Shown: positions 4,094-42,820, numbered from the stretch's first letter. The stretch is DNA of 64,000 nt from Candidatus Omnitrophota bacterium (GCA_015233115.1 JADFYJ010000006.1:595-64594), one strand, 5' to 3'. Notes: generated by a model from the sequence alone, not told the origin. Made by a program: numbers and translations.

Positions 4094-4233
4094 TTTGGCA
4101 ATTCACCAAGAAGGATGATATACTTTAGCTAAGAGATGTGAAAGGTAAACCACCCGTAAGGATGGGACACAAAGCTATAGGGCCCTGTACCAGAGGTAGA
4201 GGGTAGCCAGTTGCCGCGAGAAAAAAATTTGTG

Positions 4234-20401: not shown

Positions 20402-20536
20402 TAATAAAGCGCGCGGTTTGGCGGTTTGCATTTAAACCAAATCCTTCGCTCAAACAACCTTGGCGAAGCGCCAAGGAAACTCGCTCTGGGATTCGGTTTA
20501 AACACAAACCTTGTATTTGGGGCACGCGGTTTACCT

Positions 20537-21130
20537 ATGTTCAATAAGATTTTCTACTGGATATCTATCTTTGTTCTGCATGTCGCTCGTTGGTTGCATT
20601 TTCCGCTTAAGGTATATGGACGGGAAAATGTTCCGGCTAAAGGGCCGTTTATTATCGCGGGTAATCATCTTAGTAACCTTGATCCGGTCTTAATTCCGAT
20701 CTCTTGCCCCAGGCGTTTGAATTTCGTCGCTAAAGAAGAATTATTCAATAACAAAATATTCGGCTGGGTCCTTTTGACGTTAGGCGCGTTTCCGGTGCGC
20801 AGAGGCCAAACGGATTTGGGCGCGATTCGGGTGTTTTTAGACCGGTTAAAAACTGAACCAGTACTAATTTTCCCCGAAGGCACGCGCATGTCGGAAGGGA
20901 AAGAATTAAAAATACAAGAAGGAGTCGGCCTTCTGGTTAAAAAAACGCATTTACCTGTCGTTCCGGTCTGTGTCGAAGGAACGGATATTGTCATGCCCCG
21001 CGGCGCTAAAACCATGAAACGCCATCCCGTCACCTTAACTTTCGGAAAACCCATTTCTTTCGATCCAGGCCTTTCCCGCGAAGAAATCGCTTATGCTGTT
21101 CTGCAGAAGATATATGAATTGAAAAAATAG
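20537..21130 (+). CDS. plsC: 1-acyl-sn-glycerol-3-phosphate acyltransferase (PlsC family)
   Basis: Acyltransferase NHxxxxD block (AGNHLSNLDP) and FPEGTR block. The ATG at 20537 is preferred over the extended ORF-track start. Confidence 0.8.
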   Translation: MFNKIFYWISIFVLHVARWLHFPLKVYGRENVPAKGPFIIAGNHLSNLDPVLIPISCPRRLNFVAKEELFNNKIFGWVLLTLGAFPVRRGQTDLGAIRVFLDRLKTEPVLIFPEGTRMSEGKELKIQEGVGLLVKKTHLPVVPVCVEGTDIVMPRGAKTMKRHPVTLTFGKPISFDPGLSREEIAYAVLQKIYELKK

Positions 21131-21205: not shown

Positions 21206-24200
21206 ATGTCTCAATTTCGTTTTAGTTTTTGGACTAAATTGGTGTGTTCTTTTTTGTCAGTGATTTTTGCCTTGCAATGCGTTTATCCTTTGCAAGCCGC
21301 GAAAGCTGATGTCTTAACCCTTCCGGCTCCTGGATCAATGGTCAGCATGAGTCCGGCATTCGTTCCAACTTTATTGCGCGGCATGACTGTTCATCCTGAT
21401 AATCCGCTTCGCTTTGATTTTATTTTAGATAAGGGCGAAGCGGAGTCACAAGGTCACAAAGACACAAGGTCACAAAGGGAAATAAGAATTGAAACGGAAA
21501 AGTTGGTAAATTATTTCCTCGCGTCTATGACAGTTCCAGAAAAAGATTTATGGGTCAATCTTTCCCCGAACGAACCAAACCGGATTGTTTCCAAAGATTT
21601 AGGCAAAACTGAAATGGGCCGGGATTTGCTGGCTCAAGATTATATCCTAAAACAATTAACGGCTTCTTTAATGCAGCCGGATGGAGAAGCAGGCAGGGAA
21701 TTGTGGTCCAGAATTTATGAACGGGCTAAAAAAGAATTAAACACGACAGATATCCCTTTAGACACTTTTAACAAAGTCTGGATCCTGCCCGAAAGCGCGA
21801 CCATTTACGAACACAACAATACCGTCTATATCACAGACGCGAAATTGAAGGTTATGACAGATAGTGATTATAATACTAGTTTTAAACAAACTGTCATTCC
21901 CGCGAAAGCGGGAATCCAATTAACTTCTTTAATTAAAAAAATTATCATCCCCGAAATCGAAAAAGAAGTGAACACCGGCAAAAATTTTGCCCAGCTTCGC
22001 CAGATTTATTATTCACTCATTCTCGCCAAATGGTACAAAGACGTAGTCCGAAACAGTCTGCTTGAGAAAGTGTATATTGGAAAAAATAAAGTCGACGGCC
22101 TTGATTTAAACCCAAACCAAACACTTTCTCCGGCCAATATTTACAAACAATACATGTCCGCCTTCAAACAAGGCGTTTACAACAAAATTAAAGAAGAATA
22201 CGACCCCCAAACTCAGCAAATCATAGCCCGAAAATATTTTTCCGGCGGGTTTCAAGACACGGCCATGACCATTAAACAAGCCGACGCAGCGCAGATTACT
22301 CAGGCGCAAGAAGGCGAACAAAGTAGTGTGGCCGTCACATTAGACAACATTTCTGTAAGTCAAGAACCAGAAATAACTGAAAAAAATTTAAATGATTCTG
22401 AACGGATTATTTATAATAAAATTCAATTTCCTGTTTCTCCGGCACTTATCAGAGAAATTAAGAAGAGTAAGAAATTAGCCGAGACATTTTGTCTAATAAC
22501 TGGTATGGAGAAAAATGATTCGTTGCTGGCACAATTTTTGTTGTTTCATTTGTTTATCCGTATGTCAAAAGCAGAAGAGGGAGCTGTTGCAAATGAATTT
22601 TATTCATCGGCAGGTTTATTAAATCCATCTTATCAAGAAAGGCTGCCGGACGAATTAAGAAAAGATCCTCTTAAAGTGTTAAATGATTTTTTAACTGAAA
22701 CTGGGAGGGAAGAACTGCGTGCTAAGAATTTTGAAAATTGGGATGACTTCAAAGATTATTTGCTGAAAACTGATCAAGAGCCGTTATGGGAAATTTTTCA
22801 AGAATGGGTTGCTGCGCTGCCATATCGGAAATTTTTTGAGTTAGCGCATATTGAAAAAGCAGCGCAGTTTTTAAGTACCCGTCCGGATATGGTCCCTGAA
22901 GGTTTCCGGGAATCATTTGAAGTATTTCAAGACCGTGGAAAACCTGCGCCGATCGAAGAAATCGTGTCTGTTGTTGAAGATAATTATGGTCCTTTGGAAA
23001 ATTTATGTGAGAAGCGGCAGGATATCAAGGAAGGAGATAATCCTTATTTAAAACGGCTTAATGTGGGTACTGTCGCCGATACATTTTTGGTGACTTTAAA
23101 GAATGGTCAGCAGGAAGCTTGGAAAATCGTGGCTCCAAGCAAAGAAGCAAAGATTCGTCAAGGTCTTGAAACGCTGCGGGAAGTTATGGGTGAACTCGAA
23201 AAAAACAAAGTTTTTTTTGCCGGCAATGAAACTATCCGGTTATCCCCTGTAAGATTTTTTAAGGAATTTGAAAAAGCAGTGCTCAGAGAACTGGATATGA
23301 ATACTGAAGCAAAGCAGGCACGCGATATGATCCCTCATTTTCCAAAAGGGTTTGCTAAACCTGAAATTAGAGAAAGTAAAAAGCAGATCCTTCGCATGGG
23401 TTTTATCAATGGAACTAAAATAACTTTAGTTACGGACACTGAAATTAGAAAACGCCTAGCGAAAAAGATATTGCCTTTAATTGGTTTACAGGCGTTAGGA
23501 GATGAAATTTTTCATGCGGATCCCCACCCGGGAAATATTTTTTATATTGAAGAAACCGGTGAGATTGTTCTTTTTGATTTTGGTCAGGTGGGGTATTTGA
23601 CGAAGTCCGTGCGAAGGGATTTGGTAAATTTGGCGGTTCAAATTTTACAGCATAGAGAGCAGCGCGGTTTACATCAGGTCATGTACCATGCTATAGGGAA
23701 AATTTTACAATCCAAAATTGCTGCGAAAATGGCAAGATGGGGTTTATTTAATTATTATTGGTATCAAGAGCAAAAAAATCAGAAGAGACCCCAATCTAGC
23801 CCGGATTCAATCCGAAAAACAGAAAATCGACAGAAAGATCACGAATCTGAAATATCATTTGAATCCACCTTGGACTTTGATGATGTGCTTAAAAAAATGG
23901 TTGAAACGACACCCCTTAATATTGATGAAATTTTGGATTTTCTTGAGTTAAAAGGGATACAGAATACAGGATATAACCGTGACAGTTTACACGCAAAAAT
24001 ATCTGAAATCCTCACATCAAAAAGTATTCAAGGGTGGAAAGAGCAACAGCCTTATATTATGGTTGACCGCCTTGTGTATGAAGCAGAAGCTCTTGGGTTG
24101 ATTATTCAGACGCCATATTCTTCCATCATATCGCATATAATGACGTTTGCTCATAAATATGCAGATATGGACGACAATATTGAAGCGGATGAGATCGGAT

Positions 24201-25441
24201 TTAAAACCGAAGTCTCTTCAATTCTGAGATTCCGAAGGGAAGGCGAAAGCATTTTTCCTGTTGTACACCGCATCTTTTTAGCCGCAGACCGGTTTGGATA
24301 TCCGATATTGTCATCTGCCTCAATGCTGATCAAATCCTTACTTTTAGCCGAAGGCGTCCAACGGACGCTGAAACAAAATTTGGAAGGCAGGAATGATTCA
24401 AACGATTCAGCCATGACCATCAAACACGCCGACGCCGCGCAGATAACCCGTGCACAAGTAGGCGAACAAAGTCGAGGCAAAGTTACATTGTCTGATCATG
24501 CGATGCAACAAATTATTTTACCGGATTACGCTGGCAATTTAGACCCATTAGCCTTAGGTGAAAAGCCTAGGAAAGTGATTGAATTAATGCGGAAGGGGCT
24601 CAATGTTCCGAAATTTTTTGTCATAAAATCTAATGGGACGGGAAAACTGGAAATTACAGATGAATTAAGGCGGGTTTTTGATTCTTTTAAAAAACCGGTT
24701 ATTGTCCGCAGTGCGCATCCTATGGAAGGCGGCGAACATCCCTTTCCTGGTATATTTAACAGTTACTCAGCAGTCAGTTATTTGGCTTTCGAAGATATTC
24801 CTGATGGTATACGGCCTGATGCCGAGGGCAAATGGGATAAAGATCCATTAAGCGTTGATTGGGCATATGAAGATATGGTGGAAACAGCATCACCAGATTG
24901 GAATGATAAATTAGATAAATATTTGAAAGCCAATGCTATTAAAGATTTTGATCCAAAAGCAATGGATGCGGTTTTGATGGAACAAGTTGACGTGGAAGTG
25001 TTTGGTATGTTTTTTACAGAAAGCCAAATCCATCCTAATAAAATTGAGATTCGTTATATTATCCCAGACACAAATGATGGCGGAATTATATTGTTTGATA
25101 AAACAACTCAATCACTCGAAGAAAATTCTTTACCACAACGTATCCAGGAAGTTCTTACGGAATTTGGAAAAACTGCGCAAAAGATTCATGACATATATGG
25201 TTTTCAACAAATTGAGTTAGCGTCTTCTAAAATTGATAAAAAGGTTTATGTTTTTCAATCCAGAAATTTTCCTATTGGCGATCCAAACAACGTGGCTCGT
25301 TATCCTGAATATCAAACCATCATGACGCCTAATGCGGTACTTGGTTATGGTGATTATAATCTGCCGGTTATAGTTTTAGATGGGTTAGATAGTGTCACAA
25401 AATATAAGGAAGATCCAAAATATCGAGCCTTGAGTGAATAA
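21206..25441 (+). CDS. Giant multidomain protein: signal peptide/anchor + unknown N-domain + UbiB/ABC1-type atypical kinase domain + PPDK_N/PEP-utilising-enzyme ATP-grasp-like domain; internal repeats
   Basis: N-terminus MSQFRFSFWTKLVCSFLSVIFALQCVYPLQAAKA is signal-like. The ABC1/UbiB hallmarks LSTRPDMVP, AWKIVAP (Lys), HADPHPGNIFY and DFG are present. At the C-terminus, ...NVPKFFVIKSNG... and KPVIVRSAHPMEGGEHPFPGIFNSYSAV resemble PPDK_N VAVRSSAxxEDxxxxSFAGQ. The motif SAMTIK[QH]ADAAQIT appears twice. Confidence 0.6.
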   Translation: MSQFRFSFWTKLVCSFLSVIFALQCVYPLQAAKADVLTLPAPGSMVSMSPAFVPTLLRGMTVHPDNPLRFDFILDKGEAESQGHKDTRSQREIRIETEKLVNYFLASMTVPEKDLWVNLSPNEPNRIVSKDLGKTEMGRDLLAQDYILKQLTASLMQPDGEAGRELWSRIYERAKKELNTTDIPLDTFNKVWILPESATIYEHNNTVYITDAKLKVMTDSDYNTSFKQTVIPAKAGIQLTSLIKKIIIPEIEKEVNTGKNFAQLRQIYYSLILAKWYKDVVRNSLLEKVYIGKNKVDGLDLNPNQTLSPANIYKQYMSAFKQGVYNKIKEEYDPQTQQIIARKYFSGGFQDTAMTIKQADAAQITQAQEGEQSSVAVTLDNISVSQEPEITEKNLNDSERIIYNKIQFPVSPALIREIKKSKKLAETFCLITGMEKNDSLLAQFLLFHLFIRMSKAEEGAVANEFYSSAGLLNPSYQERLPDELRKDPLKVLNDFLTETGREELRAKNFENWDDFKDYLLKTDQEPLWEIFQEWVAALPYRKFFELAHIEKAAQFLSTRPDMVPEGFRESFEVFQDRGKPAPIEEIVSVVEDNYGPLENLCEKRQDIKEGDNPYLKRLNVGTVADTFLVTLKNGQQEAWKIVAPSKEAKIRQGLETLREVMGELEKNKVFFAGNETIRLSPVRFFKEFEKAVLRELDMNTEAKQARDMIPHFPKGFAKPEIRESKKQILRMGFINGTKITLVTDTEIRKRLAKKILPLIGLQALGDEIFHADPHPGNIFYIEETGEIVLFDFGQVGYLTKSVRRDLVNLAVQILQHREQRGLHQVMYHAIGKILQSKIAAKMARWGLFNYYWYQEQKNQKRPQSSPDSIRKTENRQKDHESEISFESTLDFDDVLKKMVETTPLNIDEILDFLELKGIQNTGYNRDSLHAKISEILTSKSIQGWKEQQPYIMVDRLVYEAEALGLIIQTPYSSIISHIMTFAHKYADMDDNIEADEIGFKTEVSSILRFRREGESIFPVVHRIFLAADRFGYPILSSASMLIKSLLLAEGVQRTLKQNLEGRNDSNDSAMTIKHADAAQITRAQVGEQSRGKVTLSDHAMQQIILPDYAGNLDPLALGEKPRKVIELMRKGLNVPKFFVIKSNGTGKLEITDELRRVFDSFKKPVIVRSAHPMEGGEHPFPGIFNSYSAVSYLAFEDIPDGIRPDAEGKWDKDPLSVDWAYEDMVETASPDWNDKLDKYLKANAIKDFDPKAMDAVLMEQVDVEVFGMFFTESQIHPNKIEIRYIIPDTNDGGIILFDKTTQSLEENSLPQRIQEVLTEFGKTAQKIHDIYGFQQIELASSKIDKKVYVFQSRNFPIGDPNNVARYPEYQTIMTPNAVLGYGDYNLPVIVLDGLDSVTKYKEDPKYRALSE

Positions 25442-28400
25442 TTGGTCCTCGCGAGAAGAAGTGGTGAAATCGAAAAGGAAAGACGACTAAGTGATTTGAA
25501 TGAAAATCTAATAGATCAAGCCCGGGAAAAATATAGAGAAGAATTGAGGAGATTTATTAGTAAACATCCAGAATATATTCTTGTCATTAAAGACGCGGAG
25601 GATTTAGCTTATTATCCTGCTGGTGATGATATTTGGACTACCAAAAATTATTCTTTTGTAAATGAACTCTCTGCCAAAGCCAAGGTCGTTATTAAAGGAA
25701 AGTACCAAAATGCAATTCGCCATGAAGATTGGGATAACATTGAGATGGGCGGGATTGTCATTGAACCGAAACAGGATGATCGGGTTATGAAAGCATTTTT
25801 TAGTACAAAGCCGGACTCATTTAAAGAAGAACCCACTTGGGTTATAGGTAAAACAGATAATATAAAAAAATTAGGTGTCAAAAGAATTCACACGGGGGAT
25901 TTTCTACATGTTTTATCAAATACAGATGGTTGTTTTATTTGGTATGGGGAAGAGGAGCATCGGGATTCAGCCATGATCATTAAGCAAGCCGATAAAGCTA
26001 TGGTTAAAAAGGGATCAGTTAATGAACAACAAAAGCTGATTACAGTGGAATTGGCTGACTATTCAATGAATTCGCTTTCTGACATTGAGGGTGTTGGCAG
26101 CATTTCATCTGCGATTAAAGATAAATATTTAAGTTCTGCGATGGAGCAGCAATTCATTATGTTAAAGAAGCGGCTTCCGAATCTGGACGTAACAAGTTTA
26201 TTATTATTTTACGGGAGAATTCTTGGCTTCCTCAATACCAGAACGCCCAAAAATCAGGAACGGTTTGATTTTTTACCAATTCCGGAATTTATTAAGCAAG
26301 AGGTTTTTGCCGCAAAAAATATTAAGGATTATAAGGAAGGGATGTACGTAGTAGAAGAAACTTTGAAGCGTTACGAAAAACAAGTATTTTTCGATAGCCC
26401 TTACTGGCTTGATAAAGTTATGAAAAACGTAAAAATAAATGGTGGCGCATCCGGTGAAATTATATTAAGGGATTTACTCGTGCTTATGAGGAGAGGTGTT
26501 TTTGCCTATTTATCCCAGTATCTCTACAGAATAGGCGGTGCCTCATCCATTACAGAATTGTTACAGGAACGTCACTACACGAAAGTATCTATGCCTCACA
26601 TTGGTGGTCAAGAACAGTTTCTTCCTGTAAGTGAGTTAGTTCCAATACAAGATATTTTAGAAAAATATCACTTGGATTCTGAAGGAAAACCTATTGGTAG
26701 CGTAAAAGACAAGGCCATGTCAAGTAAGGTTGCCGCTTTTAACCCTTCCTTTATATTAAAAATGCGTCTGGCTGTTTCTATGCTGCCGAATGTTCAAAAA
26801 GGTGAATATAGCCGGGAAGCGTTTATAAATCATTTGGATTTGCCTGATATTTATGAGCAGGCATTTGCCATTGCGAATCCGGGTAAAATTTTACAGGAAG
26901 AGGACCGTAAAAGATTACAGCAGTTGTCTTTGCATGTAACGCAGGTATTAACGGCTTGGCTGGATCAGCGTACGAAAATTCCGGATGATTCAATGGTGTG
27001 GTTGTTAAGCATTATTTTTCATGATGTCGGCAAAGTGGTTGCTTTGCAAAATCATGAAGAGTTAAGTGATAAATTTTTAACGGAAAACCTGGTTATTGAA
27101 AAATTTGTTGCGAGCGGATTGATTAACACGAAGCAGGCGGATCTGATTAAATTGCTGGTGCGGTATCATTTGCCTTTGGGCCTTATGTTTATGGGAGAAA
27201 TGAACTTTAATGATTGGAAAGATTTTTTCCGCGATGCCCGATTAAGAACTTTAGTGAAACAAGGGGTGCTTTTAAAAGACATTTTACAGCAAATTAAACG
27301 CATCACATTTTTTGATCAAACCGCGTATTCTCCAGCGGCCCCTTTCAAAACAGTTTTACAATTTCAGGATGAAATTATTGAGCAGTTAAGCGAGATAGAT
27401 ATTGACGCGAATGATATCGATGCAAAATTGGATGTTATGAGCGCTGATTTTATTAAGTCAAGGATCAAGGGTTTGGTGAGTTGGGGGGATATTAATTTAG
27501 ATCAGCCTAAGGTTTATTATGATGAATTGATGCGGAATGTGATATATCGTTTTAAGACCATTGAACCTGGTTTTGATTCTACAAGAATGTATCATGTATT
27601 ATCGCGAATAAATTTACGTCAATTTTGTATTATTGCCGCGTCTTTAGCTTGGGTCGCAGAACAGCCTAATAGTTTTGAAGAGTTTGTTCCTGCCGCGGAA
27701 AATTTTCGTAACATATCTGCAGGCGCGCAAATAAATGTCAATTTTGTAAAATTGCTTTCTGTTATAGTGTCGCAGGTTAAAACTGTGAATTTTTCTCATG
27801 TGGTGATCGAAGGTTCAGACGGCCAGGCTCCCAGCCGGGTTGTTGCGGATGATCCTTACCAGTTTGCAAAGTTTGTTTATGAATTAAATAATATTTTGAG
27901 TAAAGAACAGTCCGTGGACCAGCAGGGCAATAACTTTTTCTTTTTGGATGAACACGGACAGCGGCTGAGTGATATAACCAGAATGGTTATTGACGAGCAG
28001 GCAGCAACATTAAAAATTATCATTGATAGCGGGACGACGGCTGTGAAAAATGAACAAAAACAGGAGCCGGTTGTTGCTCAACCCGAGATCGAACAGCATC
28101 CGGGGGAGTTAATTCCGTTCAATCGCGCGAAGATTAATCCACTACTCACGACCATGCAAACCGTTAAGTTAAGCTTTTTGCCGGCAGGGCAAAGCATCCT
28201 GTTCAATGTGAGCGGCACGATAACACATTTTGTGGATTTTAGTGTTGGAGATCCTGACGATAAAAGGTTTATTATTACGATTCTACCGGAGGATGAACCG
28301 GAAGAAAAAGCATACATTTTAACAGTAGGAAATGTTGATACTGATGTCGAAGGAACAGCCGCTCAATTAAAAATAGTTGATTCCGCAGTACTTTCTGACG

Positions 28401-28630
28401 TTGGTGGTATTGATATGACCAAGGTTGGGTTTAAGCGGGAAGCAAGCCCTGCATCCCACGTGGTGCAGGGTAAACATGAAATTATTTTTAATTTTGACCC
28501 GGCCATGCTGGAACAATTTCAATCTGGAAATTTCAAAAGTTTTCAGGCTGTTATCACAAATGTGACGCCTTTGCCAAGCGTCCTGCCGCTTTTGGGTTTA
28601 TCGCTGGATAAAAAGAATAAGGCTGGTTAG
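25442..28630 (+). CDS. Second large ORF in the same frame (separated from the previous ORF by a single TAA): HD-domain phosphohydrolase-containing multidomain protein
   Basis: It continues the frame of 21206..25441 immediately after the TAA. The HD signature is ...WLLSIIFHDVGKVV... with downstream His/Asp. A third copy of the SAMIIKQADKA repeat is present. The true start is unclear; the track shows a TTG directly after the stop. Confidence 0.5.
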   Translation: MVLARRSGEIEKERRLSDLNENLIDQAREKYREELRRFISKHPEYILVIKDAEDLAYYPAGDDIWTTKNYSFVNELSAKAKVVIKGKYQNAIRHEDWDNIEMGGIVIEPKQDDRVMKAFFSTKPDSFKEEPTWVIGKTDNIKKLGVKRIHTGDFLHVLSNTDGCFIWYGEEEHRDSAMIIKQADKAMVKKGSVNEQQKLITVELADYSMNSLSDIEGVGSISSAIKDKYLSSAMEQQFIMLKKRLPNLDVTSLLLFYGRILGFLNTRTPKNQERFDFLPIPEFIKQEVFAAKNIKDYKEGMYVVEETLKRYEKQVFFDSPYWLDKVMKNVKINGGASGEIILRDLLVLMRRGVFAYLSQYLYRIGGASSITELLQERHYTKVSMPHIGGQEQFLPVSELVPIQDILEKYHLDSEGKPIGSVKDKAMSSKVAAFNPSFILKMRLAVSMLPNVQKGEYSREAFINHLDLPDIYEQAFAIANPGKILQEEDRKRLQQLSLHVTQVLTAWLDQRTKIPDDSMVWLLSIIFHDVGKVVALQNHEELSDKFLTENLVIEKFVASGLINTKQADLIKLLVRYHLPLGLMFMGEMNFNDWKDFFRDARLRTLVKQGVLLKDILQQIKRITFFDQTAYSPAAPFKTVLQFQDEIIEQLSEIDIDANDIDAKLDVMSADFIKSRIKGLVSWGDINLDQPKVYYDELMRNVIYRFKTIEPGFDSTRMYHVLSRINLRQFCIIAASLAWVAEQPNSFEEFVPAAENFRNISAGAQINVNFVKLLSVIVSQVKTVNFSHVVIEGSDGQAPSRVVADDPYQFAKFVYELNNILSKEQSVDQQGNNFFFLDEHGQRLSDITRMVIDEQAATLKIIIDSGTTAVKNEQKQEPVVAQPEIEQHPGELIPFNRAKINPLLTTMQTVKLSFLPAGQSILFNVSGTITHFVDFSVGDPDDKRFIITILPEDEPEEKAYILTVGNVDTDVEGTAAQLKIVDSAVLSDVGGIDMTKVGFKREASPASHVVQGKHEIIFNFDPAMLEQFQSGNFKSFQAVITNVTPLPSVLPLLGLSLDKKNKAG

Positions 28631-28799: not shown

Positions 28800-30347
28800 A
28801 TGGTACAAGATAATCGCAGCGTGATGGAGGAACTGTATAAAGGCACGTTCCGAGAAATTAAGGAAGGAGAGATCGTAACCGGCACTATCGTCGGCTTCAA
28901 TGATAAAGAAGCGGCAGTCGATATTGGTTTTAAGTCGGAAGGCTTTGTTTCAATTGAAGAATTCAGAAGCCCTAAAGACATTAAAGTCGGGACACAGATC
29001 GACGTGTTGGTTGAGTCTATCGAAGATGAAGAAGGCCGCCTGGTTCTATCGCATAACAAAGCTGAAAGGCTTCGTGGATGGATGAACCTGGGTGATAATA
29101 TAAATGAAGGCGACCAGGTTATCGGCCGCGTGGTGAAGCAGGTTAAGGGCGGATTCATTATTGATATCAAAGGCGTCGAAGCATTTTTGCCGATGTCATT
29201 GTCCGCGTTCAAAGGTGTTTCTTCCGAACAGATTTTGGCTAATGAATATACATTTGTTATTGCCAAATTAAATAAAGCCCGCCGTAATTTAATCGTATCC
29301 CGACGTGAAGTGGTTCAAAAAGAGCGCGAAGCAGTCCGCGACCGTTTATGGGATGAATTGAAAAAAGGCGAACGCCGCATGGGTACAGTCAAAGGTATTA
29401 CTGACTTTGGCGCATTCATTGATCTAGGCGGAGTGGATGGGTTATTGCACATTACCGATATGAGCTGGACGCGTATTAATCATCCGTCTGAAGTGGTTTC
29501 AATCGGCGATAAAGTGGAAGTGCTTATTTTAGATTTTGATAAAAAAGAATCTAAAGTCAGTTTAGGATTAAAACAGATTTCAGATAATCCTTGGGCTGAT
29601 ATTTACGATAAATATCCGACAGGTACCCGTGTTAAAGGCAGTGTCGTTAATGTCATGTCTTACGGTGTGTTTGTGGAAATTGAAAAAGGTATTGAAGGGT
29701 TATTGCATTCATCAGAAATTACCTGGCAGAAAAAACTGGTTAATCCGCAGGATATGTTCAAAGTTGGAGATCAGATTGAAGTGCAGGTTATTAATGTTGA
29801 TAAAGATTCCAAACGTATTTCTTTGAGCATGAAACAGCTCGAAGATAATCCGTGGTTACGCGCAGGCGACAAATATCCAGTAAATTTCCGCGCTAAGGGT
29901 AAAGTTCGCGGGTTTACAGATTACGGCGCGTTCGTTGAGTTAGATGAAGGTTTGGAAGGCATGATTCACATTTCCGATATGTCTTGGACTAAAAAGATTA
30001 ACCATCCACAAGATGTGTTGACTAAAGGGCAAGAAGTAGAAGTTATTGTCTTAGGTGTCGATGCTGAAAACCGCAAAATTAATTTAGGTTTAAAGCAATT
30101 GATGGAAAATCCTTGGCCTGAATTAGCGGCTAAATATCCGGTTGATTCTGAAGTGGAAGCGGAAGTGGTCTTGAATTCTAATTTTGGCGTATTTGTCAAA
30201 TTAGAAAAAGACGTGGAAGCTTTGGTCTATTCTTCAGAGATTGATAAAGAAAAAGCCACAGCGTTGAAACCGGGCGATAAATTAAAAGTCCGCATCATTA
30301 AAGTGGACGTGGAACAAATGAAGATCGGCGTAAGCGCGAGAGTTTAA
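28800..30347 (+). CDS. rpsA: 30S ribosomal protein S1
   Basis: Multiple S1 RNA-binding domain repeats. The protein is 515 aa. Confidence 0.9.
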   Translation: MVQDNRSVMEELYKGTFREIKEGEIVTGTIVGFNDKEAAVDIGFKSEGFVSIEEFRSPKDIKVGTQIDVLVESIEDEEGRLVLSHNKAERLRGWMNLGDNINEGDQVIGRVVKQVKGGFIIDIKGVEAFLPMSLSAFKGVSSEQILANEYTFVIAKLNKARRNLIVSRREVVQKEREAVRDRLWDELKKGERRMGTVKGITDFGAFIDLGGVDGLLHITDMSWTRINHPSEVVSIGDKVEVLILDFDKKESKVSLGLKQISDNPWADIYDKYPTGTRVKGSVVNVMSYGVFVEIEKGIEGLLHSSEITWQKKLVNPQDMFKVGDQIEVQVINVDKDSKRISLSMKQLEDNPWLRAGDKYPVNFRAKGKVRGFTDYGAFVELDEGLEGMIHISDMSWTKKINHPQDVLTKGQEVEVIVLGVDAENRKINLGLKQLMENPWPELAAKYPVDSEVEAEVVLNSNFGVFVKLEKDVEALVYSSEIDKEKATALKPGDKLKVRIIKVDVEQMKIGVSARV

Positions 30348-35198: not shown

Positions 35199-38100
35199 AT
35201 GAAAAATTTCAAAATACGCGACTTTAGTAAGCATAAAGACACGTTTGAGCTCCCGTCTTTACTGGATATTCAAACTGTATCATATGCGCATTTTTTGCAA
35301 AGGGAAATAGACCCTGACAAGCGCAAAGATCATGGCTTAGAAGAAGTCTTTCGTGAAGTTTTTCCTTTAGAGAGTTATGACGGGCAAATACGCTTGGAAT
35401 ATTTAAACTACTCTTTAGGACGGGAAAAATATAATGCTACAGAATGCAAAAGCCGCGGGTTGAATTACGCCGCACCTTTGAAGGTAAAGCTGCGTTTGAT
35501 TACGCCGGTGGATATCAAAGAGCAGGAAGTTTACTTCGGTGACTTTCCCTTAATGACGGATACCGGAACGTTTATCATTAATGGTGATGAACGGGTGGTG
35601 GTTTCCCAGATTCAGCGCCCGCCTGGTGCTTCTTTTGAAGAAGAATTGCATCCGACTGGAAAAAGTATTTACCATGGCAGGATCATTCCGTCTCGCGGAG
35701 CTTGGTTCGAGGTTAAGTATGATTTGAACAACATACTGTTAGCTTATATTGACCGCCGTCGTAATTTTCCGGCAACGCAGATTTTGCGTATTATGGGTCT
35801 TTCGACCGAAGAAGAAGTACGTAAGATGTTCGGAGATGATTTTGATAAACTCGCACCGACTTTTGAAAAGGATCACACTAAATCAAAAGACGAAGCGTTA
35901 TTAGATTTTTACCGTAAAATGCGTCCTACTGAGCCGGCAACGGTGGAAGTGGCAGAATCATTATTTTATCGTTTATTCTATGATCCGAAACGTTATGATT
36001 TGAGCAAAGTCGGTCGCCATATCATCAACCGTAAACTCGGCATGGATGTATTACTCGAAAATCGTGTTTTAGACATTGCCACCCTCGTCGAAGTTATGCG
36101 CTATTTAATGCGTTTGCGCGAAGGGGTCGGCGAGACAGATGATATCGACCATTTAGGCAACCGCCGTATTAAAACTGTCGGTGAATTAGTGCAAAATCAG
36201 GTGCGTATCGGTTTGGCTCGTCTGGAACGTTCCATTAAAGAACGTCTGGTGGTCATGACCAGTTTTGAAAATTTAACCGCACACCATTTGATTAACTCCC
36301 GTTTATTTTCAAACCAGATTCAAGATTTTTTCTCTCGTAGTCAATTATCTCAATTTATGGATCAGGTTAACCCGTTATCCGAAATGACGCACAAACGCCG
36401 TTTGAGCGCTTTAGGGCCGGGTGGTCTTTCCCGTGAACGCGCAGGGTTTGAAGTACGCGACGTCCATCCAACTCATTATGGCCGGGTTTGTCCGATTGAG
36501 ACGCCTGAAGGTCCAAATATTGGTTTAATTTCATCGCTGACAAATTGCGCCCGTGTAAATGAACTGGGATTTATTGAGACGCCTTACCGCAAGGTTGAAG
36601 ACGGTAAGGTGACAAATAAAACATCGTATTTCACCGCTGATAAAGATCAGGGCGAATATATTGCTCCGGCGAGTACACCGCTGGAAGAAGACGGAACATT
36701 TAAAGATAAAATTATTACTTGCCGTTATAAAACTGATTTTCCTAAAATAGCGCCTAAAGATGTGGCTTTGATGGATGTTTCTCCTTATCAGGTCGTATCT
36801 GTGGCTACGTCCATGATCCCGTTTTTGGAACATGACGACGCAAACCGCGCGTTAATGGGCTCTAACATGCAGCGCCAGGCTGTCCCTTTACTTCAACCGC
36901 AGGTGCCGTTGGTTGGTACCGGCATTGAAGCGAAAGTGGCGAAAGATTCCGGCGTAGTTGTGGTTGCCAAAGAAGCTGGTATCGTCACGAAAGTGGATGC
37001 CAAAGAAATTGTTATTAATGAAACGGTATACCCGCTCATTTCTTTCCAGAGAACCAACGCCAATACCTGTATTAATCAGCGCTCCTTGGTCAATGTGGGT
37101 GATAAAGTTAAAGAAGGACAAGTTATTGCCGACGGTGTTTCGACCAAAGACGGAAAATTGGCTTTAGGCCGCAACGTTTTGGTCGCGTTCATGCCCTGGC
37201 GTGGATATAACTTCGAAGATGCGATTTTATTAAATGAAAAATTAGTCAAGGAAGACGCGTTTACTTCAATCCATATTGAACGTTTTGAAGTCGAATGCCG
37301 GGAAACCCGTTTGGGGAATGAAGAAATTACCCGCGATATTTCCAATGTCGGCGAAGAAGCTTTAGCAAATTTGGATGAGACAGGTATTGTCCGCATCGGT
37401 GCTGAAGTGAAGCCGGGAAGTATTCTGGTTGGAAAAGTTACGCCGAAAAGCGAAAAAGAACTTTCTCCAGAAGAGCGTTTAATTCGCGCGATTTTCGGTG
37501 AAAAAGCTGATGATGTCCGTGATACATCACTCACCCTGCCGCCTGGTGTGGAAGGTGTGATTGTTAATATTGAAGTGTTCCAGCGCAATGAACGCGGCCG
37601 TAAATCCAAAGACGACAAAAAACGCGATGGAGAAGCGGTTGAAAAAGTCAAAGCGTATTATGTGCAGGAACGTTTATTTATTGAAGACGAAAAAAATAGA
37701 AAATTATGCGAGATGTTAGGAATTGACGCGAAAAAGCTGGCAAAGATGGATTTGCGCAAGACCGATCATCCCGAAGTGAATGAATTGCTGGAATTTTACC
37801 AGGATAAAATGCAGGAATTGGAACGCGAAGAAGAGCAGGAAGTGGAACGCGTCCGTAAAGGCGATGAACTTCCTTCCGGCGTTTTGAAAAAAGTTGTAGT
37901 GCATGTGGCGACCAAACGGAAGATCTCCGAAGGGGATAAGATGGCCGGACGCCATGGTAACAAAGGTATTGTGTCTCGTATCCTTCCGAGTGAAGATATG
38001 CCGTTTTTAGCAGATGGGACAGCGGTCGATGTCGTGTTAAATCCGCTAGGTGTTCCTTCTCGTATGAACGTGGGACAGCTTTTGGAAACCCATTTAGGGT

Positions 38101-38687
38101 GGGCGGCTCAAACTTTAGGTTTTTACGCTGTGACTCCGGTATTTAACGGAGCAACCGAAGCGGAAATTCATGAATGTTTGAAAGAGGCTGGTTTGCCGGA
38201 AAATGGTAAAACGAAATTATACGACGGTCATACAGGTATTCCGTTTGATCAAGAGGTGACTGTTGGATATTTGTATATGTTGAAATTGAATCATTTAGTC
38301 GACGAAAAGATCCACGCCCGTTCTATTGGGCCGTATTCTTTAGTTACTCAACAGCCTTTAGGCGGTAAAGCGCATTTTGGCGGTCAGCGTTTCGGGGAAA
38401 TGGAAGTTTGGGCCCTGGAAGCTTACGGCGCTGCCTATACGTTACAAGAAATGTTGACAGTTAAGAGCGACGATGTCATTGGCCGGAGCAAAATGTATGA
38501 AGCAATTGTTAAAGGCCAGCAAAAATTGGCCACAGGAACGCCAGAGTCTTTCAATGTTTTGGTTAAGGAACTTCAAGGATTATGTCTCGATATCAAATTG
38601 ATATGTCCGAATGAAGTTAAAGAGCAGGAAGCAGCGGAAAGCGCTGAAAAATCCAAAGAAACCAAAGAAAAAGATAAAAAGAAATAA
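35199..38687 (+). CDS. rpoB: DNA-directed RNA polymerase subunit beta
   Basis: 1162 aa with conserved beta-subunit blocks (e.g. ...NMQRQAVPL..., ...GRHGNKGI...). Confidence 0.97.
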
Positions 38688-38689
38688 AT

Positions 38690-41600
38690 ATGGCAAAGAA
38701 AAAGACTGATATTTTAGCCGAAGATCGTATTGAAATTCAGATCGCCTCACCGGAAGTCATTCGCGCATGGTCGTGCGGAGAAGTGAGAAAAGCGGAGACA
38801 TTAAATTACCGCACTTTGAAACCGGAGAAGGATGGACTTTTTTGCGAGAAGATCTTTGGACCTGTCCGTGATTGGGAATGTAATTGCGGCAAATATAAAG
38901 GCATTAAATTCAAGGGGATCACCTGTGACCGTTGCGGTGTTTTAGTAACCCGTTCCGCTGTCCGCCGTGAAAGAATGGGACATATTGAGTTAGCGTGTCC
39001 TGTGACCCATATTTGGTTTTATAAAGCGGTGCCCTCACGTTTGGCCGCGTTATTGCAGATTTCTTTGCGCGACCTGGAAAAATTGATCTATTATGAAGAA
39101 TATGTGGTCATTGATCCGGGCAATACGCCATTAAAAGCGAAACAATTTTTGTCGGAAGATGAATATCAGGATGCCCTCGTCAAATACGGCGGAGGTTTTA
39201 AATCTGAAATTGGCGCGCAAGCTGTTAAATATCTATTGAAAGAGATGGATATGGATCTTTTATGTAAAAAATTGCGTAAAGATTTAGAGAATTCTAATCC
39301 TACCGGCGCGAATGCTAAAAAAATATCTAAGACTCTTAAGATTATTGAAGAGTTTAAAAGTTCCGGGAATCAGGCCGAGTGGATGGTTTTGGGTATGCTT
39401 CCGGTTATTCCTCCGGATTTGCGTCCTTTAGTTCCTCTAGAGGGTGGACGTTTTGCGACATCTGATCTTAATGATCTTTATCGCCGGGTTATCAACCGCA
39501 ACAACCGTTTAAAGAAATTGATGGACCTCAAAGCTCCGGAAATTATTTGCCGCAATGAAAAACGTATGCTGCAGGAAGCGGTTGACGCTTTGTTGGATAA
39601 TGGCCGTCATGGCCGTCCGGTTTTAGGTTCTGGAAACCGTCCTTTGAAATCCTTGTCAGATATGTTAAAAGGAAAACAAGGTCGTTTCCGTATGAATTTG
39701 TTAGGTAAACGTGTAGATTACTCCGGCCGTTCAGTTATCGTAGTCGGTCCTGAATTAAAATTGCATCAATGCGGTTTGCCGAAAAAGATGGCTTTGGAAT
39801 TATTTGAGCCGTTTATTATTCGTAAATTGCGCGAAAAAGGTTACGTTCACACCAACAAAGGCGCCAAACGTATGGTGGAACGCGCTAAGGTCGAAGTTTG
39901 GGATATGCTCGACGAAGTATTAAAAGACCATCCGATCATGCTCAATCGCGCGCCTACACTTCACCGTTTGAGTATTCAAGCGTTTTATCCGGTTTTGGTT
40001 GAAGGGAAAGCCATTAAATTACACCCCTTGGTTTGCGCGGCTTTTAACGCGGATTTTGACGGTGACCAAATGGCTGTGCATATTCCGCTTTCTTTAGAAG
40101 CCCAAATTGAGTGCCGGTTACAATTGCTTTCTATCAATAACCTGTTCTCACCGGCAGATGGCCGCCCGGTCATTTCTCCGTCACAGGATGTGGTTCTTGG
40201 TTTATATTATTTATCAAAAGAGTATGATGAGTCAACCGAAGATGACGGTCGTCTTTATTCGGATATGAAAGAAGTTTTAGTCGCTTATACCGACGGATAT
40301 TTAGGTCTGCAAAAACGCATTAAATTACGTTTAGACCGTCCGGTTTGGGGTGAAGAAAAGCCCTCCATGATTATCAGTCAAGAGCAGGCCATTCAACAGG
40401 CCGGCGGCGAAAAAGCTAATGTGGATGAGCATACAAAAGCGCATATAATTGAAACCACAGTTGGCCGGGTTATCTTTAATCAAATTTTGGATAAAGAGTA
40501 CGGTTACGTGAATGAGCTTCTCGATAAAAAGAAAATCGGGGCGGTCATTGCGGATTGCTATAAACGTTTTGGTCAGCGCAGGACTGTTAAATTCCTCGAT
40601 GATCTAAAAGATATGGGTTTCAAACAGGCGACGTTGGCAGGAATTTCTATTGGTATCGCTGACTTAACCGTTCCGGTTGAGAAGGGTGAGATCATTAAAA
40701 AATCTACCGCTGAAGTAGCCAAGGTTGATGAGCAATATCGTCGCGGTATTATTACTGGCCGTGAACGATATAACAAAGTTATTGATATTTGGACCCACAC
40801 GACAGAATCTATTTCAGATCATTTGTTTAAACAAATGCATCCGATGAATCCGGTGTTTATTATGGCGGATTCAGGCGCTCGTGGTTCTCGCTTACAGGTT
40901 CGTCAGTTGTCTGGGATGCGCGGTTTGATGGCTAAACCGTCTGGTGAAATTATTGAGAACCCAATCACGGCTAGTTTCCGTGAAGGTCTTTCGGTTTTGG
41001 AATATTTTATCTCGACCCATGGTGCCCGTAAAGGTTTGGCTGATACGGCCCTTAAAACGGCAGACGCTGGTTATCTAACCCGCCGTCTGGTGGACGTGGC
41101 TCAAGAAATTGTCATTAATGAAGCAGACTGCGGCACCTTAAATGGTATCACGGTTTCTGCTATCGTTGAAGGCGATGAAATGGTGGTCAGTCTGAGGGAG
41201 CGTATTATTGGGCGCGTCGCTCTGGATACCATTGTGGATATCGTAACTGATCAAAAAGTTGTTGAAGCCGGCGAAATTATTACTGAAGAAAAAGCAGAAT
41301 TTATCGAACATTTGGGTATTGAAAAAGTCCGTATCCGCAGCGTTTTGACCTGCGAGTCAGAACACGGTGTGTGCGCGCGCTGTTACGGCCGTAACTTGTC
41401 GACTCAGCGTCTGGTTGAAATAGGTGAAGCGGTCGGTATCGTAGCCGCCCAGAGTATCGGTGAGCCTGGTACACAGTTAACCATGCGTACGTTCCACATC
41501 GGTGGTACAGCGAGCCGTTCAATCGAACAATCATTCTATAAAGCAAAAAATGAAGGTATCGTCCGTTATCATCAATTGCGCGTAGTTGCTAAAGGTAATG

Positions 41601-42820
41601 AATTTATTGTCTTGAACCGCAACGGAGCGCTGAGTATTAATAATGAATTCGGACGTGAATTTGAACGTTATCCGCTTCCGCAAGGCGCAGTTATTAAATT
41701 TGCCGACGGGACGGAAATTAAAAAAGATACAGTGTTCGTCACTTGGGATCCTTATACTGTTCCGATTATTACGGAAATGAAAGGTAAGGTTAATTCCGAG
41801 GATATTATTCCGGATGTGACGGTTCAGGAAGAACAGAATCAGATTACCGGAGTTGTGGAACGCGTGGTCGTGGAACATAAACAGGAATACCATCCGCAGA
41901 TTATTATTACGGATGAACATGATGAGATCGTCGGAATTTACTCAATTCCTATCGGCGCTCACATTATGGTTCAGGATAAGCAGACTGTCAGCGCCGGTGA
42001 GTTGATCGCGAAGATCCCCCGCGTGGCAGGTAAGACGAGAGATATTACCGGAGGTCTTCCGCGTGTGGCCGAATTGTTTGAGGCGCGCAAACCTAAAGAT
42101 CCGGCTGTTATTAGCGAGATCGACGGTATTGTGGAATTCGGCGAAGATAAGCGTGGTCGACGGACAATTATTGTTAAATCGTCGACAGGTATGTCATCCG
42201 AATACACCATTCCGCACGGTAAGCATCCTAACGTTTATAAAAATGATAAGGTCTTTGCCGGCCAGCAGTTGACCGACGGACCAGTCGTGCCGCACGATAT
42301 TTTAAGGGTCTGCGGGGATAAAGTTTTACAGGAATATCTCCTCAATGAAATTCAGGAAGTTTATCGTTTGCAGGGTGTGCGCATCAATGATAAACATATT
42401 GAGTTAATTATTTCACAGATGTTGAAAAAAGTTAAGATCGAAGATTCTGGCGATACGCCATTCCTCGTCGGTGAAATGGTTAATCGTGTGACATTTAAAA
42501 AAGTCACCGAGGACGTTATTAAGAAAAAAGGGAAACCAGCACAAGCAACGCCTCAGCTATTGGGGATTACCAAGGTGTCTTTGACGACGGAGAGTTTTAT
42601 TTCCGCGGCCAGCTTCCAAGAAACAACAAGAGTCTTGACAGAAGCGGCATCGTCTGGTAAAATTGACGTTCTTCGTGGGTTGAAAGAAAACGTCATTGTA
42701 GGACATTTAATCCCTGCGGGTACTGGTTTAAATATTTATAAAGAAGTAGAAATGGTGAAATATGCCGACGATACAACAGTTGATCAGAAAGAGCAGAATT
42801 CAGAAACGACCGAAGAGTAA
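38690..42820 (+). CDS. rpoC: DNA-directed RNA polymerase subunit beta'
   Basis: 1376 aa with Zn-finger [21 protein letters not shown] and the catalytic NADFDGD. Confidence 0.97.

Follow-up and report, generated by a model that had tools for sequence, protein, structure and literature searches.

The locus and its interrupted gene

The DNA analysed here is a 64,000-nucleotide stretch from a Candidatus Omnitrophota bacterium (GCA_015233115.1, JADFYJ010000006.1:595-64594), called the window throughout, and the subject is a gene on its + strand that encodes a giant modular protein and is divided by one in-frame TAA into two open reading frames (ORFs), ORF1 and ORF2. An earlier note on this DNA, made from the sequence alone, had placed ORFs of 1411 and 1062 amino acids (aa) in one frame between plsC and rpsA, and both the coordinates and the flanking genes were confirmed (Table 1). 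In public databases both products, tagged HQL26_04310 and HQL26_04315 and named 'hypothetical protein', are assigned to a Candidatus Omnitrophica metagenome-assembled genome (MAG), and each was found once, on one 149-kb contig of one MAG.

The ORFs share a common frame, with the single TAA as their sole separator. The same note had treated them as two separate genes, which did not hold up: because the TAA interrupts a conserved module of about 490 aa that is uninterrupted in all seven independent homologues (7/7), ORF1 and ORF2 are, by comparison with these proteins, one gene cut by a single stop codon. In the homologues, the residue aligned to the TAA is R, Q, E or A. This module, the second of three carried by the protein, crosses the stop. 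Upstream of the stop its identity to P0002, P0003, P0004 and P0122 is 37-47%; downstream it is 41-48% to these four, and the alignment is collinear and unbroken. A scan of metagenome contigs added five further loci (three new proteins, L087, L088 and L089) in which module 2 is free of stops. The two terminal domains of the family described below are likewise divided between the ORFs, the N-terminal one being found only in ORF1 and the C-terminal one only in ORF2. BLASTP tiling of the read-through product gave matches to all 119 listed homologues for aa 1-360, to four to six of the 119 for aa ~1020-1620 and to 53-66 of the 119 for aa ~2340-2474; the remaining regions were unique, except for a weak match of the kinase region to P0078.

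There is no additional stop or frameshift in the 3.2 kb after the TAA, and the interruption is therefore recent, an artefact of assembly or population, or tolerated; the interrupted gene is possibly a pseudogene or an assembly error. If the TAA is read as a stop, translation would yield a 1,411-aa product with the signal, N-domain, kinase and ATP-grasp, and everything from the second half of module 2 onward, including the HD module and the C-domain, would be missing. Because so much would be removed, the allele is probably defective, provided that the stop is not an artefact of assembly. Stop-codon recoding was rejected, TAA being the commonest ordinary stop in the window (25/43).

In a variant of the one-gene explanation, the TAA would be a mistake of assembly or consensus calling, or an allele carried by a minority of the population, and the intact 2,473-aa protein would be made. 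We regard this as possible rather than probable. It is favoured by the open downstream 3.2 kb, by homologue similarity that is as high after the stop as before it (41-48% vs 45-47%), and by the fact that a single base change from CAA, GAA or AAA suffices to give TAA at a position where homologues have Q, E, R or A. Substitution errors are, however, uncommon in consensus assemblies, and the searched collections held no second copy of the locus to back an intact allele, either by exact-pattern scan of metagenome contigs or in protein clusters (one member, one contig).

A functional split, in which ORF1 is exported and ORF2 is made as a separate cytoplasmic HD protein by re-initiation at TTG 25442 or 25496, appears improbable. 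A TTG does directly follow the TAA (25442), the public annotation has two genes (HQL26_04315 being 1,044 aa with its start at TTG 25496), and the stop sits in a predicted helical linker that follows the ATP-grasp core. Against this stand the continuity of module 2 in the seven homologues and the odd composition of the resulting ORF2, which would start in mid-module and be signal-less, yet keep a C-domain that otherwise accompanies the exported N-domain; nor was a convincing promoter or terminator found at the junction.

A conserved head and tail around exchangeable cargo

As reconstructed from alignments, the family scaffold consists of a signal segment, an N-domain of ~315 aa, connectors marked by the motif D-x-A-M, one to several exchangeable cargo modules and a C-domain of ~75 aa, and the kinase, ATP-grasp and HD modules of the window gene are better read as a cargo load on this conserved scaffold.

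The N-terminal sequence pattern agrees with the Sec signal or signal anchor proposed in the earlier note. The sole strongly hydrophobic segment in the 2,474 aa lies at aa 8-30 (the only Kyte-Doolittle peak >1.6), with a positively charged start before it and an A-x-A-like site after it, and an AlphaFold2 model places a helix at aa 8-26. By the same hand-made count of hydropathy and charge, 53 of 58 family members have a signal-like layout with a net-positive n-region and a hydrophobic core (mean Kyte-Doolittle 2.15). The family alignment also contains a near-invariant Ala ~6 aa ahead of the LxLPxPG motif.

The N-domain that follows, ending in KYFSGG, is 49-76% identical to 119 homologues, and their alignment has 39 invariant columns, many of them aromatic. 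Among 8,000 candidates scored with the first ~350 aa, 3,562 proteins match at E<=1e-3, with identity typically ~50% over exactly that part, and at least 582 loci were confirmed by a pattern scan that took a single genome for each GTDB species. All of the 80 loci inspected belong to Omnitrophota MAGs (a few labelled 'Planctomycetales' or 'bacterium'), often with several per genome. The N-domain has no match in Pfam, NCBIfam or PDB sequences, and tblastn gave no phage match. When a model of the domain was compared using Foldseek, the best matches were non-significant (E 0.19-0.9, TM ~0.1); they were soluble components of ClyA-family alpha-pore-forming toxins (SmhA, NheA, MakB and MakE) and are a lead only. 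Family genes may also lie close together: an Omnitrophota contig (JBBRHV010000048.1, 3318-12135) carries two in tandem, ~3.7 kb apart (L001 and L002), and HQL26_05010 and HQL26_05015 are adjacent paralogues in the same MAG as the window.

At the other end, GGI[DN] is found 50-115 aa from the C-terminus in 97 of the 119 N-domain homologues, and many of the remainder are on short contigs or annotated as partial. The tail has the consensus GGIDxN.I...R.G.G..I.FDP......L....I.GF.PVIINxTP..S.LPLLGL, and the end of ORF2 is a typical copy. The TAA lies between the N-domain and this tail, and the two would share a polypeptide only if the stop is not real or is read through. The C-domain has no match in PDB sequences, and 24 C-domains compared with Pfam and NCBIfam gave no meaningful match, including to the type IX secretion system (T9SS) C-terminal domain (CTD), PEP-CTERM, GlyGly-CTERM and LPXTG models.

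The content between head and tail, to judge from its Pfam domains, differs from protein to protein. Cargo elsewhere includes enzymes (PGK, PFK, adenylate, guanylate and nucleoside-diphosphate (NDK) kinases, glutamate dehydrogenase, UGPase, aldo/keto reductase, NUDIX, Maf, LpxC, methyltransferases and GNAT), signalling domains (receiver, histidine-kinase and GGDEF) and repeats (HEAT, ankyrin and TPR).

In the window gene, 'D[ST]AM[TI]IK.AD' occurs three times (aa 351, 1067 and 1587), each time opening an element of ~30 aa ahead of a module. Connectors 1 and 2 form an 80-nt direct DNA repeat with 79% identity, and a 29-nt DNA repeat is present in three copies among the connectors. Across the family, D-x-A-M is 16-fold enriched (274 observed vs ~17 expected in 116 proteins), it lies 3-26 aa upstream of the starts of mapped cargo Pfam domains (e.g. 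'DxAMLSGKRILVVDD' ahead of receiver domains), and the residue preceding its Asp is diverse. D-x-A-M is a protein-level punctuation mark and may correspond either to a site of processing or to a junction of recombination. The motif was also considered as the footprint of a Shine-Dalgarno sequence plus ATG (internal or captured starts); this was rejected, a Shine-Dalgarno-like core being present at 6/94 connectors vs 130/1,405 control Met codons.

Neither ORF matched the PADLOC models of anti-phage defence; with this result and the lack of a phage tblastn match for the N-domain, an origin in a defence system or a phage was rejected. The scaffold is absent from Pfam (2025) and NCBIfam (2026), and it was not found in the full-text literature searched, nor in the targeted passages of Omnitrophota papers. 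The domains themselves are known, the exact combination is a singleton among the proteins searched, and the scaffold family is without a description in that literature.

The three cargo modules

Module 1. The UbiB/ABC1 kinase core recognised in the earlier note was borne out: PF03109 matches aa 629-818 (E 1.8e-25, 89.9 bits vs a cut-off of 22.9), and KAAQFLSTRPD, AWKIVAP, ELDMNTEA, HADPHPGN and DFG align with an ordinary ABC1 kinase (P0134). The module is thus like UbiB/ABC1/ADCK kinases (PF03109) in its Lys, HxDxHPGN and DFG motifs and in a KxGQ-like motif present as KAAQ (G to A), and the catalytic core is, by these motifs, intact. It differs in its long, unassigned helical extensions (~170 aa N-terminal and ~250 aa C-terminal to the core), in its exported multi-module context and in lacking the C-terminal membrane helices of UbiB. 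No membrane helices are predicted in the module, the N-terminal signal being the only hydrophobic segment of the product. Against the UbiB equivalog TIGR01982, the score (E 2e-34, 118.8 bits) falls below the cut-off of 487.55. With this sub-equivalog score, no C-terminal membrane helices and a place within a 2,473-aa protein, module 1 is classified as not UbiB proper. Its core is 30-34% identical to stand-alone ABC1 kinases of ~550 aa (32% to one of 552 aa), over the core only, and in the family and elsewhere among the sequences searched no close relative was found, only the weak match to P0078.

Module 2. The earlier assignment of an ATP-grasp module of the type found in phosphoenolpyruvate (PEP) synthase is correct, though not provable from the window sequence alone: the window's own PF01326 score is 16.3 bits vs a cut-off of 27, whereas the module profile matches PEP synthase 8a8e (E 3.4e-4) and the stand-alone relative L088 scores 26.4 bits over 225 aa. 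A structure model was made for the P0002 module (45% identical), with the window halves in the alignment; its pLDDT (predicted local distance difference test) is 59 overall, with values of 70-90 across most of the first 265 aa, where the fold is an ATP-grasp closest to the PPDK_N/PEP synthase/rifampin phosphotransferase subfamily. The TAA maps just after this domain. The second half was considered as a PEP-utilizer swivel domain and this was not supported, with no PF00391 match even at E<=10 and negative hhalign comparisons with the PF00391-bearing P0016 and P0102; the pLDDT there is <50, too low to judge swivel identity from the model. The T-S-H phosphohistidine motif was not detected in the module. 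Compared with PEP synthase, pyruvate-phosphate dikinase (PPDK) and rifampin phosphotransferase, module 2 differs in having no detected PF00391 swivel and a family-specific second half with the invariant 'NAIRHEDW'. Elsewhere the ATP-grasp module is found beside PGK, beside a histidine-kinase ATPase or alone, and it is shared with a handful of other exported proteins.

Module 3. Of the HD phosphohydrolase proposed for ORF2, the motif stood, being backed by relatives above the cut-off and by invariant residues, while the window's own PF01966 score did not reach the threshold (15.1 bits vs 22). An exhaustive HMMER search of 1.84 billion representatives returned only 11 relatives of the module (best E 8e-30), and three of the seven scanned pass the cut-off (P0123, 26.5 bits; P0127, 25.0 bits; P0132, 23.4 bits), with two more just below. 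In an alignment of eight sequences, HD, the H of HEE, the H of RYH and two Gly are invariant, seven of them retain a downstream Asp (P0123 has Glu), and the usual upstream first His of the HD family is not conserved. Weak PDB matches of the module fall only on HD domains (Cas10 and exopolyphosphatase). The conserved part is flanked on both sides by sequence without an assignment. Elsewhere the module is found alone or beside GlpX, and it also lies near the C-terminus of the giant proteins P0124, P0125 and P0126 (3,248-5,115 aa), which lack the N- and C-domains.

Stand-alone relatives of module 2 (L088:717-2507 and L089:203-2944) and of module 3 (P0127, P0129 and P0132), all outside the N/C-domain family, start with signal-like hydrophobic segments. 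These starts fit an extracytoplasmic destination, and export seems to be habitual for the enzyme families of these two modules.

The earlier note had suggested that the kinase, ATP-grasp and HD modules form one integrated signalling or nucleotide-modifying machine, such as a self-regulated kinase/phosphatase pair. All three do perform phosphate chemistry and lie on one polypeptide, and nothing tested supports their functional coupling. The three were not found together elsewhere: modules 2 and 3 keep the other company given above, the kinase has no close family relative apart from the weak P0078 match, and each module is set off by the generic connector of the family. We consider integration very unlikely. 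The note's related claim of an undescribed architecture was right as to the order of the cargo, for which no homologue was found among 5.8 billion proteins (queries ORF1, ORF2 and kinase module) or with the HD module as query among the 1.84 billion representatives. The architecture is no one-off, its order being one combination in a combinatorial family.

Export and function

On balance, we favour the view that the locus is a single interrupted gene of an exported, modular, Omnitrophota-restricted family, with cargo acting as a multi-effector. The architecture, the family and its confinement to Omnitrophota among the loci inspected, the signal-like N-terminus, the domain identities and the interruption are shown by the sequences, whereas the function is inferred. 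The reading with the best support makes the product a multi-enzyme effector or surface protein that is exported and possibly processed, and the 'secreted effector' option of the earlier note is the most attractive. The precursor would be threaded through Sec, and the conserved head and tail would sort, anchor or deliver the protein beyond the cytoplasmic membrane. Because ATP-dependent cargo would be useless in the periplasm or outside the cell, cargo of this ATP-needing, intracellular type would act inside another cell, most plausibly in the cytoplasm of a host or prey as a multi-effector, and the D-x-A-M junctions may be processing sites that free individual modules. Omnitrophota are proposed as mostly predators or parasites (PMC10066038), and intron RNA of Velamenicoccus has been observed within dead prey cells (PMC13153191); the multi-effector reading fits both this lifestyle and the Velamenicoccus RNA reaching prey.

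Several points weigh against it. The gene is known from one contig of one MAG only, modules 2 and 3 score below the Pfam cut-offs in the window itself, and the module 2 model is that of a 45%-identical homologue, of moderate confidence, with its C-terminal half unresolved. No secretion apparatus adjoins this gene or the two other members examined. The sorting or delivery role of the N- and C-domains is an argument from architecture only, and the export, processing and delivery of family proteins are proposed from sequence and architecture.

A serious alternative is that the proteins are not delivered to other cells and are displayed on, or retained in, the envelope of the producer, with the N-domain as an anchor, the C-domain as an outer-membrane sorting signal and the cargo as a periplasmic or surface enzyme coat. 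The pairing of a Sec signal with a short, conserved C-terminal domain resembles C-terminal sorting in its logic (as in T9SS CTD and PEP-CTERM proteins), the N-domain is rich in invariant aromatics, as binding domains often are, and the genes lie scattered in the genome, with no dedicated injection machinery beside them (two members examined). Much of the cargo, however, needs ATP, NAD(P)H or nucleotides that are not available outside the cytoplasm (examples are kinases, PGK, PFK, NDK, adenylate/guanylate kinase and receiver domains), and the C-domain matches no known sorting-domain model in NCBIfam or Pfam. We give envelope display a limited chance.

The multi-effector reading has parallels in known systems, and the resemblance is in logic, without homology. 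MARTX toxins, known from Vibrio and related bacteria, are exported proteins of very large size with conserved ends and variable effector modules released at short junctions, and their load differs from strain to strain. The family is like them in its conserved ends, variable load and short junctions, with no relation in sequence or fold; the arms of MARTX are glycine-rich repeats, secretion is by type I without a Sec signal, and release is by an internal cysteine protease, whereas the family here has a predicted Sec signal, a globular N-domain that matches nothing in the PDB and a C-domain of 75 aa, lacks a recognisable protease and is known from sequence alone. Type IX secretion cargo carries an N-terminal Sec signal and a conserved C-terminal domain of ~80 aa on otherwise unrelated proteins. 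The logic of a Sec signal plus a short conserved C-terminal domain is shared, but the C-domain matches no T9SS CTD model and T9SS cargo is without a shared 315-aa N-domain.

Oomycete Crinkler (CRN) effectors depend on a Sec signal and include kinases among their cargo. Polymorphic toxins (PMC3482391) are likewise similar in combining a trafficking head and a short junction motif with diverse, recombining C-terminal modules. The family differs from polymorphic toxins and CRN in that its modules are mostly housekeeping-type enzymes and repeat proteins, not nucleases, deaminases or peptidases, and in adding a conserved tail and a restriction to one bacterial phylum; there are no immunity genes beside the two members examined. 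Giant Omnitrophota proteins of >10,000-30,000 aa, with many transmembrane (TM) helices and SecA-like domains, are described in two further reports (10.1101/2023.11.21.568195; 10.64898/2026.06.07.730766). They are alike in phylum, in being multi-domain, in mostly having signal peptides or TM helices and in an interpretation that draws on predation, and a targeted term search of the two reports gave no mention of the N-/C-domain scaffold or the D-x-A-M connectors.

Genomic setting

The locus has a G+C content of 0.38 and a third-position G+C (GC3) of 0.35-0.36, vs 0.41-0.43 and 0.40-0.52 in its flanks, which is compatible with a fast-evolving or a recently acquired or recombined gene. The earlier note had called the position between housekeeping genes unusual and had suggested checking whether the neighbourhood is conserved. 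The position proved to be ordinary, the two other members examined also lying among housekeeping-type genes, and no conserved neighbourhood was found for those two.

All 43 ORFs of >=150 aa taken as genes in the window are on the + strand, three ORFs of the opposite strand overlap longer ones on this strand, and the GC skew is positive in all 2-kb bins (1-64000). The window has the look of a single long leading-strand block, in which ORFs the size of rpoB and rpoC (35199-42820) also lie. Toward its left end, a c-di-GMP-I riboswitch (4134-4218, +, 58.7 bits) is followed ~235 nt downstream by a gene of prepilin type whose product carries a methylation motif at its N-terminus (PF07963; 4454-5465 region, +) and then by a second pilin-like ORF, which suggests a c-di-GMP-controlled pilus or pseudopilin cluster.

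Table 1. Coordinates of the interrupted gene, its parts and its flanking genes, counted from the first nucleotide of the window.
Feature	Position	Strand	Basis or remark
ORF1, 1411 aa	21206-25441	+	ORF list and translation
ORF2, 1062 aa counted from TTG	25442-28630	+	ORF list and translation
Whole gene, 2,473 sense codons, single frame, one internal TAA	21206..28630	+	terminal stop 28628-28630
In-frame TAA splitting the gene	25439-25441	+	sequence and homologue alignment
Predicted Sec-type signal peptide or signal anchor, aa 1-34 (R5, K11, core aa 12-27, 'PLQAAKA')	21206..21307	+	hydropathy, family layout
Conserved family N-domain, aa 35-350 (LPxPGxMV ... DLWVNLSP ... DYILKQ ... KYFSGG)	21308..22255	+	
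Connector 1, aa 351-380, 'DTAMTIKQADAAQITQAQEGEQSSVAVTLD'	22256..22345	+	D.AM motif, DNA repeat
Cargo module 1, divergent ABC1/UbiB-type atypical kinase	22346..24403	+	PF03109, TIGR01982
Kinase core	22856-23659	+	
Kinase Lys motif	23117-23137	+	
HADPHPGN	23513-23536	+	
DFG	23573-23587	+	
Connector 2, aa 1067-1096, 'DSAMTIKHADAAQITRAQVGEQSRGKVTLS', then directly a second D-x-A-M (DHAM, aa 1097)	24404..24493	+	
Cargo module 2, PPDK_N/rifampin-phosphotransferase-type ATP-grasp and conserved C-terminal half	24494..25963	+	spans the internal stop
ATP-grasp part	about 24494-25290	+	
'NAIRHEDW' (invariant)	25709-25732	+	
'TGD..VLSNTDG'	25892-25930	+	
Connector 3, aa 1587-1616, 'DSAMIIKQADKAMVKKGSVNEQQKLITVEL'	25964..26053	+	29-nt repeat
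Cargo module 3, HD-type metal-dependent phosphohydrolase module	26054..28360	+	PF01966, HMMER relatives
Conserved part of HD module	26897-27985	+	
HD motif (aa 1939-1940)	27011-27034	+	
HEE	27050-27064	+	
RYH	27158-27172	+	
Conserved family C-domain, aa 2386-2474 ('D-x-A ... GGIDM ... FDPAML ... ITNVTPLPSVLPLLGL')	28361..28627	+	alignment of 98 members
PlsC-type acyltransferase gene (PF01553)	20426-21130		upstream flank
rpsA, six S1 repeats	28800-30347		downstream flank

Implications

More tentatively, the head, D-x-A-M junctions and tail might define a phylum-wide polyprotein delivery system of the Omnitrophota, cut at the junctions and taking over the metabolism of host or prey. If so, hundreds of intracellular-type enzymes, signalling domains and repeat proteins would be exported as polyproteins, and the window gene would represent a single load, here broken, made up of three phosphate-handling enzymes. 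The window gene itself is of lesser importance, being a singleton combination that may be a pseudogene.

Family members are publicly named by the cargo that was recognised in them, for example 'aldo/keto reductase', 'nucleoside monophosphate kinase', 'Maf family protein', 'UDP-3-O-acyl-GlcNAc deacetylase' and 'PEP-utilizing enzyme', and naming of this kind could inflate or mislead metabolic reconstructions of Omnitrophota MAGs. The Omnitrophota are widespread, ultra-small and uncultured; the family, with thousands of members and several per genome, is a candidate for their missing effector arsenal, or at least for a phylum-specific sorting system.

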